Assembly (NCBI RefSeq): GCF_003334385.1
Contig: NZ_QOWN01000120.1
DNA: 1,242 nt
Direction: 5' to 3' (one strand)
From: Escherichia coli
Lineage (GTDB): Bacteria; Pseudomonadota; Gammaproteobacteria; Enterobacterales; Enterobacteriaceae
A model generated the notes under the pieces. The model searched no databases, was not told where the DNA came from, and saw nothing but the letters and a program-made list of their open reading frames with translations. Shown one piece after another: positions 1 to 692 of the stretch; the first letter of the stretch is position 1; every line of letters begins with the position of its first letter. A program made the position numbers and the translations under genes.

Positions 1-692
1 ATACTGCCGGGGATCTCAATCACCCCGGACGGCCTGCCGCCATTTCTGAAAAAAGACGTTGAATTTGCCTGAATATGATGCCCCTGCGTGGCCGCCAGCC
101 CGGCAGCATACACCGGCGGCAGCCCCACAAGCGGATGAAAAAAACAGTTAAACCGGTCGTGGATCACTTCCCTGGCAGGCACCGTCACCGCCTCCGTGAT
201 CCCGCAGTTCCGGTCCGGTGTAATGCGATAGAACACCTCGCCGTCATCCGCCACCAGAGGTTCAACCCGGCTCCAGTCCAGAATACGCAGTTCTTTGATC
301 TGCCCCCGGGCATTACGGATTTTCAGCACCACCGTATTGCCGTGACGCAGTTTGGCGTTCAGCCACAGTTCAAAAAACTGGATACGATTCTGCTGTGCAT
401 TGGGACGACGACAGAGACGGGCAATATCCCCCCGGCGCGTTTCCCTGCGTATCCCATGCGCATCCGTCTGCATAAGACGCAGCCGCATTTTGGCGATATC
501 CTGGGATATCAGCGAAATACATGCAAACACCGCATGAAAGGAGAGGACGGCTTCAGGATCGGCTTTCACGCCCTGCTGCCAGGCGCCGGAAAAGGGCTCA
601 GCCACCGCCTGAAACAGGCTGGTCCAGCCCGCCTCTCTTACGTCACGTCCTGATTTCTGGTTTTTTCGGGTTCGCCGTAAAAGGTTCCACAT
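1..692 (-). CDS. Phage portal protein, HK97 family (Pfam Phage_portal PF04860-like); N-terminal ~230 codons, 3' end beyond window left edge
   Basis: Hand translation of the minus strand gives an uninterrupted frame from ATG at 692..690 to position 1: MWNLLRRTRKNQKSGRDVREAGWTSLFQAVAEPFSGAWQQGVKADPEAVLSFHAVFACISLISQDIAKMRLRLMQTDAHGIRRETRRGDIARLCRRPNAQQNRIQFFELWLNAKLRHGNTVVLKIRNARGQIKELRILDWSRVEPLVADDGEVFYRITPDRNCGITEAVTVPAREVIHDRFNCFFHPLVGLPPVYAAGLAATQGHHIQANSTSFFRNGGRPSGVIEIPGS... It contains the motifs I recall as characteristic of HK97-type portals: AVFAC-ISLIS near the N-terminus (cf. AVYAC..LIS) and FFRNGGRPSGV (cf. FFxNGAxPSGV). In-frame TGA lies immediately upstream of the ATG (at 707..709). 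GGAG at 704..701 sits 8 nt upstream of the ATG. Third codon positions are G/C-rich, consistent with coding. Not in the supplied ORF track because there is no stop inside the window. Alternative in-frame start: GTG at 605..603. Confidence 0.8.
   Translation of the reverse strand, partial: MWNLLRRTRKNQKSGRDVREAGWTSLFQAVAEPFSGAWQQGVKADPEAVLSFHAVFACISLISQDIAKMRLRLMQTDAHGIRRETRRGDIARLCRRPNAQQNRIQFFELWLNAKLRHGNTVVLKIRNARGQIKELRILDWSRVEPLVADDGEVFYRITPDRNCGITEAVTVPAREVIHDRFNCFFHPLVGLPPVYAAGLAATQGHHIQANSTSFFRNGGRPSGVIEIPGS

Follow-up and report, generated by a model that had tools for sequence, protein, structure and literature searches.

Mononucleotide runs within open reading frames are known from several well-described systems. 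In bacterial and phage genes they are often incidental by-products of coding, as where Phe-Phe is written TTT TTT or Lys-Lys AAA AAA, and such runs are sites of occasional pseudogenisation by indels and of long-read sequencing error. In Haemophilus, Neisseria, Campylobacter and some of their phages, mononucleotide runs serve as contingency tracts whose length sets the frame of the ORF. Yet other short motifs, such as the lambda G/GT site and A_AAA_AAG of dnaX, direct programmed −1 ribosomal frameshifting on a heptamer of the form X_XXY_YYZ, while efficient transcriptional slippage usually needs a run of about nine or more bases. The run considered here, seven T's in the portal gene of a prophage, is an ordinary tract of a known and already explained kind, i.e., a weak indel-prone site whose length variants in databases are mostly technical. 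A literature search on homopolymers or frameshifts of the portal in prophages found nothing specific to the portal gene.

The Window and Its Gene Context

The window, by which the whole analysed stretch of 1,242 nt is meant, contains three coding regions, all of them on the minus strand. These regions and the A/T runs of the portal gene are as follows:

904..1242, minus strand: 3' end of the gene for a prohead protease/major capsid fusion protein of 645 aa (phrog_617, phrog_80)
638..859, minus strand: 73-aa ORF of unknown function between the capsid and portal genes (phrog_829)
1..692, minus strand: N-terminal 230 codons of an HK97-family phage portal gene (PF04860 in homologs, phrog_2271, phrog_12, PDB 9lbn/8cez)
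661..666, minus strand: A6 on the coding strand (T6 on the plus strand), CGA AAA AAC encoding Arg9-Lys10-Asn11, also inside the 3' end of the small upstream ORF
372..377, minus strand: T6 on the coding strand, in CAG TTT TTT GAA, where TTT TTT encodes Phe106-Phe107 (QFFE)
138..144, minus strand: T7 on the coding strand (A7 on the plus strand), the last T of TGT (Cys183) and TTT TTT (Phe184-Phe185), followed by CAT (His186)
49..54, minus strand: T6 on the coding strand, TCT TTT TTC encoding Ser213-Phe214-Phe215 of the SFFRNGG motif

The portal gene begins with the ATG at 692..690 and leaves the window at its left edge; in relatives the full-length protein has 454 aa. Homologs 97–99% identical to it carry the Pfam domain PF04860, and the encoded protein matches the profiles phrog_2271 (E = 0) and phrog_12 (E = 2e-119), both named portal protein, as well as the solved portals 9lbn (5e-30), 8cez of HK97 (1.6e-20) and 6tba (2e-12). 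Judging from these similarities, the gene encodes a portal of the HK97 family. It sits inside a head-morphogenesis module with the terminase, protease/capsid and head-tail connector genes, the order in annotated relatives being TerS, TerL, the protease-capsid fusion, the 73-aa ORF, the portal, an ORF with repeats, the head-tail connector, head closure and a gp10-like gene. HK97 has its portal gene first, followed by protease and capsid; here the protease-capsid fusion comes ahead of the portal, an arrangement shared by every relative inspected, those of 65–75% identity among them.

The prophage that carries this portal is lambdoid, of the Stx type, and falls in the BP-4795/2851 group. Of 5,426 complete E. 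coli genomes, 1,244 contain matches to the window, 2,921 places in all, with identities of 90–99.4% and up to seven copies per genome. The window also matches 92 phage records, mainly of long-tailed Stx-converting phages, e.g., BP-4795, 2851 and YYZ-2008.

Some further features of the window lie upstream of the tract. The 73-aa ORF overlaps the start of the portal gene by 55 nt in a different frame (638..692), and the A6/T6 run at 661..666 falls within this overlap. Between the capsid stop (904) and the start of the small ORF (859) there are 44 nt, and within them lies a perfect 10-bp inverted repeat at 868..889 (ACGGGAGGCG CA CGCCTCCCGT), with no T-run after it on the coding strand. An Rfam scan of the window returned only a chance-level match to sroE (E = 0.44), which overlaps this inverted repeat.

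The Tract as a Product of Protein Sequence and Codon Usage

The tract at 138..144 reads AAAAAAA on the plus strand and, in the portal frame of the minus strand, TGT TTT TTT CAT, i.e., Cys183-Phe184-Phe185-His186 within the portal peptide HDRFNCFFHPLVG. Both the sequence and the frame given for it in an earlier note on this DNA are thus correct; the only error of that note concerns a second T6 run, which it placed at 51..56 and which in fact occupies 49..54 (A6 on the plus strand). No other homopolymer in the windowed portion of the portal gene is as long as the T7 tract.

When the window is compared with shuffles that preserve its mono- or dinucleotide composition, its A/T runs appear to be in excess: 0.02–0.06 runs of at least seven bases are expected per window and one is present, and four runs of at least six bases are observed against 0.13–0.22 expected, though these nulls take no account of coding. 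The portal fragment has a marked codon preference, using TTT for 10 of 12 Phe, TGT for three of four Cys and AAA for all seven Lys, and it contains three Phe-Phe dipeptides. When synonymous codons were shuffled within the gene, a run of at least seven bases arose in 57% of trials and T7 at the exact site in 51%; the mean number of runs of at least six bases was 2.4, and four or more were obtained with P = 0.064. The T7 tract is therefore explained by the protein sequence together with the codon preference of the gene.

The tract is very probably an incidental by-product of coding, with no regulatory or recoding role, whose rare length changes are mostly of sequencing origin and truncate the protein. 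It would have arisen where Cys-Phe-Phe met a strong preference for TTT and TGT, so that three codons joined into seven T's. Like any homopolymer of 7 nt, it would gain or lose a base during replication, and more often in long-read sequencing, and a change in length would truncate the portal at about 225 aa. Purifying selection would presumably remove such variants from functional phages and tolerate them only in decaying prophages. The effect on the reading frame can be stated exactly: with T8 (+1) a stop follows 40 codons on, giving a product of 225 aa, and the T8 loci indeed carry an ORF of 225 codons, while with T6 (−1) the stop comes after 38 codons, giving about 223 aa. The prediction that an event of either sign truncates the portal holds, as both frameshifts end within about 40 codons.

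Tract Length among Relatives and in Complete Genomes

A first alignment comprised 80 IMG/VR loci, whose portals share at least 95% protein identity, and three reference loci, together representing 47 distinct sequences 93.6–99.6% identical. All 83 loci have T7. Their first 690 nt align without a single gap and with 118 variable columns. Since all 12 Phe codons are likewise invariant among the 83 loci, the tract is no more conserved than the other Phe codons of the gene. A gap-tolerant pattern scan of IMG/VR found 57 contigs, of which 55 have T7, one T6 (L091) and one T5 (L085).

Complete E. coli genomes were searched in two ways. Queries with an exact context of 87 nt, which inform only on the flank haplotype of the window itself, found 257 records with A7 and none with A6 or A8. 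The haplotype-tolerant census used queries composed of a 28-nt left flank as the seed, the tract and an invariant 9-nt right flank, with which only exact matches reach at least 99% identity; queries of 20 nt on either side of the tract were rejected, as the DUST filter of BLAST would mask T7/T8 in seeding and produce false zeros. The census, which sees only copies with the exact 28-nt left flank and whose identity bands use the best-matching place of each record, covered about 2,200 places in 1,125 complete E. coli records, and about 99.7% of copies had T7. T8 was found in four records of three strains (2015C-3121, SJ7 and NCTC86, the latter in two assemblies), and T6 in three records (MBT-5, PNUSAE008406 and PNUSAE019785). 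The T5 allele of L085 is absent from the 5,426 complete genomes, many of which have the identical flanks with T7.

More distant portals, 65–75% identical, come from genomes including Citrobacter, Klebsiella, Raoultella, Cronobacter and Kosakonia. They keep the motif HDRFNC-x-FHP, but most of them have Leu at residue 184. At the site of the tract, four such homologs have TGT TTT TTC, TGT CTT TTT, TGT CTT TTC and TGC CTG TTT, and one homolog of this group has T7 at the other Phe-Phe site. By comparison of these sequences, the T7 run appears to be a lineage-specific accident of codon choice.

What the earlier note had named as refuting any significance beyond coding is essentially what the sequences show. 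Length heterogeneity across related sequences amounts to about 0.3% of copies and is mostly attributable to assembly error, as discussed below, and at the nucleotide level the tract is not kept in the 65–75% identical homologs. The expectation that it most likely just encodes Phe-Phe, and is at most a modest hotspot of slippage, is supported by the codons, by the stability in the population and by the broken tract of the homologs.

Length Variants and Assembly Errors

The three T6 records of the census are assembly errors. Each of them differs from its nearest T7 relative by 11–21 indels per 5.1 kb, of which almost all fall in homopolymers; the terminase, capsid, connector and tail genes of these records are flagged as frameshifted. 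Among the IMG/VR loci, L091 (T6) has further homopolymer errors and a scrambled contig end, and L085 (T5) is otherwise clean.

A separate case is P0019 (locus L084, GCA_003742765.3, RLKF03000006.1), with T6 at the tract and a compensating T7 at the second tract, the one at 49..54. Single-base indels at homopolymers and at CCWGG sites are the signature of uncorrected nanopore data. The L084 contig has about 20 such indels in 7.5 kb, at homopolymers and CCWGG (Dcm) sites, and its terminase and capsid genes are split; the candidate natural allele with a double frameshift was therefore rejected as an assembly artefact.

The four public assemblies of NCTC86, Escherich's strain, disagree at the tract, two having T8 and two T7. 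LR217818 and OZ489144.2, which do not differ over 6 kb, both have T8. CP019778, obtained with PacBio at 140x (PMC5399273), has T7 and an intact portal ORF, and over the same 6 kb it differs from the T8 assemblies only at three homopolymers of at least 7 nt, with no substitutions. The fourth assembly, LT601384, a PacBio assembly whose indels were corrected with Illumina/Pilon (PMC5382810), has a span of 300 nt instead of 301, i.e., it has T7. As T7 is read in both of these further assemblies of the strain, the second with Illumina correction, the T8 of NCTC86 is most likely a long-read consensus error.

In 2015C-3121 and SJ7 the surroundings are otherwise clean, with no net indel but T8 over 5.1 kb. 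The neighbouring capsid gene of SJ7 has an internal stop, so that this prophage may really be decaying. The T8 alleles of these two strains could be genuine slippage mutations, and the tract could thus occasionally be a real site of decay. Five of the seven variant records of the census are attributable to assembly error, and a genuine variant could be present in at most about 0.1% of copies. For users of public assemblies, the length variants of the tract, mostly artefacts, make intact portal genes look like pseudogenes.

Possible Roles of the Tract

If the tract were a mutational hotspot, recurrent slippage from T7 to T8 would disable the portal in resident prophages and aid their domestication. 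The three strains with T8 carry it on prophage backgrounds differing by 3–4%, as recurrence would have it, and T8 stands as the sole net indel in 2015C-3121 and SJ7, the latter with its capsid gene already interrupted. Against this, the T8 of NCTC86 is contradicted by two other assemblies of the strain, every T6 case lies in an error-ridden assembly, and variants make up no more than 0.3% of copies in all. Among the fetched loci the portal ORF is truncated in other ways (to 188, 351, 443, 491, 544, 558 and 734 codons) no less often, and, being the longest homopolymer of the windowed gene, T7 is just where long-read consensus errors concentrate. A role as a hotspot is thus improbable. Slightly less probable still is a combined alternative, in which either the T8 of SJ7 and 2015C-3121 is real and T7 recurrently disables the portal by slippage, or low-level −1 slippage yields a 225-aa fragment with a role in assembly. 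Should the T8 alleles be real, hosts or neutral decay would be disabling the portal of a very common prophage family through this tract.

The remaining functions that a run of this kind might have are both extremely improbable. As a phase-variable (contingency) switch the tract would turn the expression of the portal, and hence phage production, ON and OFF; the gene that holds the homopolymer is an essential structural one, and length variants are present in databases. Yet about 99.7% of copies are T7 with no lineage inheriting an OFF allele, the 257 records with identical 87-nt flanks all have T7, and frequent length polymorphism among close relatives, by which contingency loci are recognised, was not found, whereas a G5/G6 run at the 3' end of this gene, judged from the same data, is divided 78:43, a real dimorphism. 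As a site of programmed −1 ribosomal frameshifting or of transcriptional slippage, the tract would give an N-terminal fragment of 225 aa ending in a 40-aa trans-frame tail. TG[T TTT TTT] CAT does read as U_UUU_UUU in the zero-frame phase of X_XXY_YYZ, and the sequence beginning 3–6 nt downstream can fold into a GC-rich hairpin (−33.7 kcal/mol); its z-score, however, is only −1.29, with 24 of 200 shuffles folding at least as well, and the commonest haplotype, which has four uncompensated changes in the 5' arm, folds differently. The heptamer is broken in all four 65–75% identical homologs examined, the −1 frame offers only 40 codons in GC-rich sequence with no link to function, the Rfam scan gave no match beyond chance level, and a run of seven bases is below the length of about nine or more at which transcriptional slippage becomes efficient. 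Programmed frameshifting was rejected on the broken heptamer of the homologs and on the hairpin, which is neither significant nor preserved in the commonest haplotype.

The reading of the tract as an incidental product of coding is the one retained, and its biological importance is very small, as it is ordinary coding sequence.

A G5/G6 Run at the 3' End of the Portal Gene

Another run of the same gene lies outside the window. About 670 nt to the left of window position 1 the portal gene ends with ...TTC AGG GGG ATA CTG CGA AAA TGA, where ATGA forms an overlap with the next ORF; in locus L003 the G5 run is at 3343–3347 on the minus strand. With G5 the portal has 454 aa and is followed by a separate ORF of 407–461 aa with 54-aa tandem repeats. 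With G6 the portal and the next ORF are fused into a single ORF of 807–915 aa. The ratio of G5 to G6 is 78:43 among the fetched loci, and loci with identical portal DNA of 1.35 kb differ in their G5/G6 state (L015/L020 and L027/L048). G5/G6 is a real dimorphism, in sharp contrast to the monomorphic T7. In the 65–75% identical homologs there are always two ORFs, which overlap by 4 nt.

The ORF that follows the portal (L003:2108–3331, minus strand; about 7076–7843 in the reverse complement of L001) contains tandem repeats of 162 nt (54 aa; VPRDGRDYDPDVLQQAVNDAVANIPQPADGKSLTPDDVRPMLEQMVKEAVSHIP). Their copy number varies, the fused ORFs having 807, 861 and 915 aa, i.e., differing in steps of 54 aa. 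The repeat ORF is annotated only as portal protein.

In PGAP annotation the G5 form is flagged as frameshifted, while the G6 form passes as intact, and the profile phrog_2271 is itself an 859-aa fusion. The frameshifted flag of portal genes was first suspected to be an effect of T7; this was rejected, as the flag stems from the G5 junction, where the two ORFs meet beyond the window. It is thus the G5 state of the 3' run that accounts for the many portals flagged by PGAP. The G5/G6 run, which sets a portal of 454 aa against a fusion of approximately 860 aa with the repeat protein, is the more interesting lead.

Comparison with Known Systems

With contingency tracts, the tract of the window shares its nature as a mononucleotide run in an ORF that sets the frame; unlike them, it is short (seven bases), monomorphic in populations and without inherited OFF alleles. 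With the programmed −1 sites of lambda G/GT and dnaX it formally shares the X_XXY_YYZ phase of its heptamer, but it has neither the conserved heptamer, nor the conserved stimulatory structure, nor the extended trans-frame ORF known to function. The closest counterparts are incidental coding homopolymers, in which the same run of seven bases comes from adjacent codons and rare variants of one base more or less truncate the ORF and are concentrated in assemblies of the PacBio or ONT type; from these the tract of the window differs in nothing.
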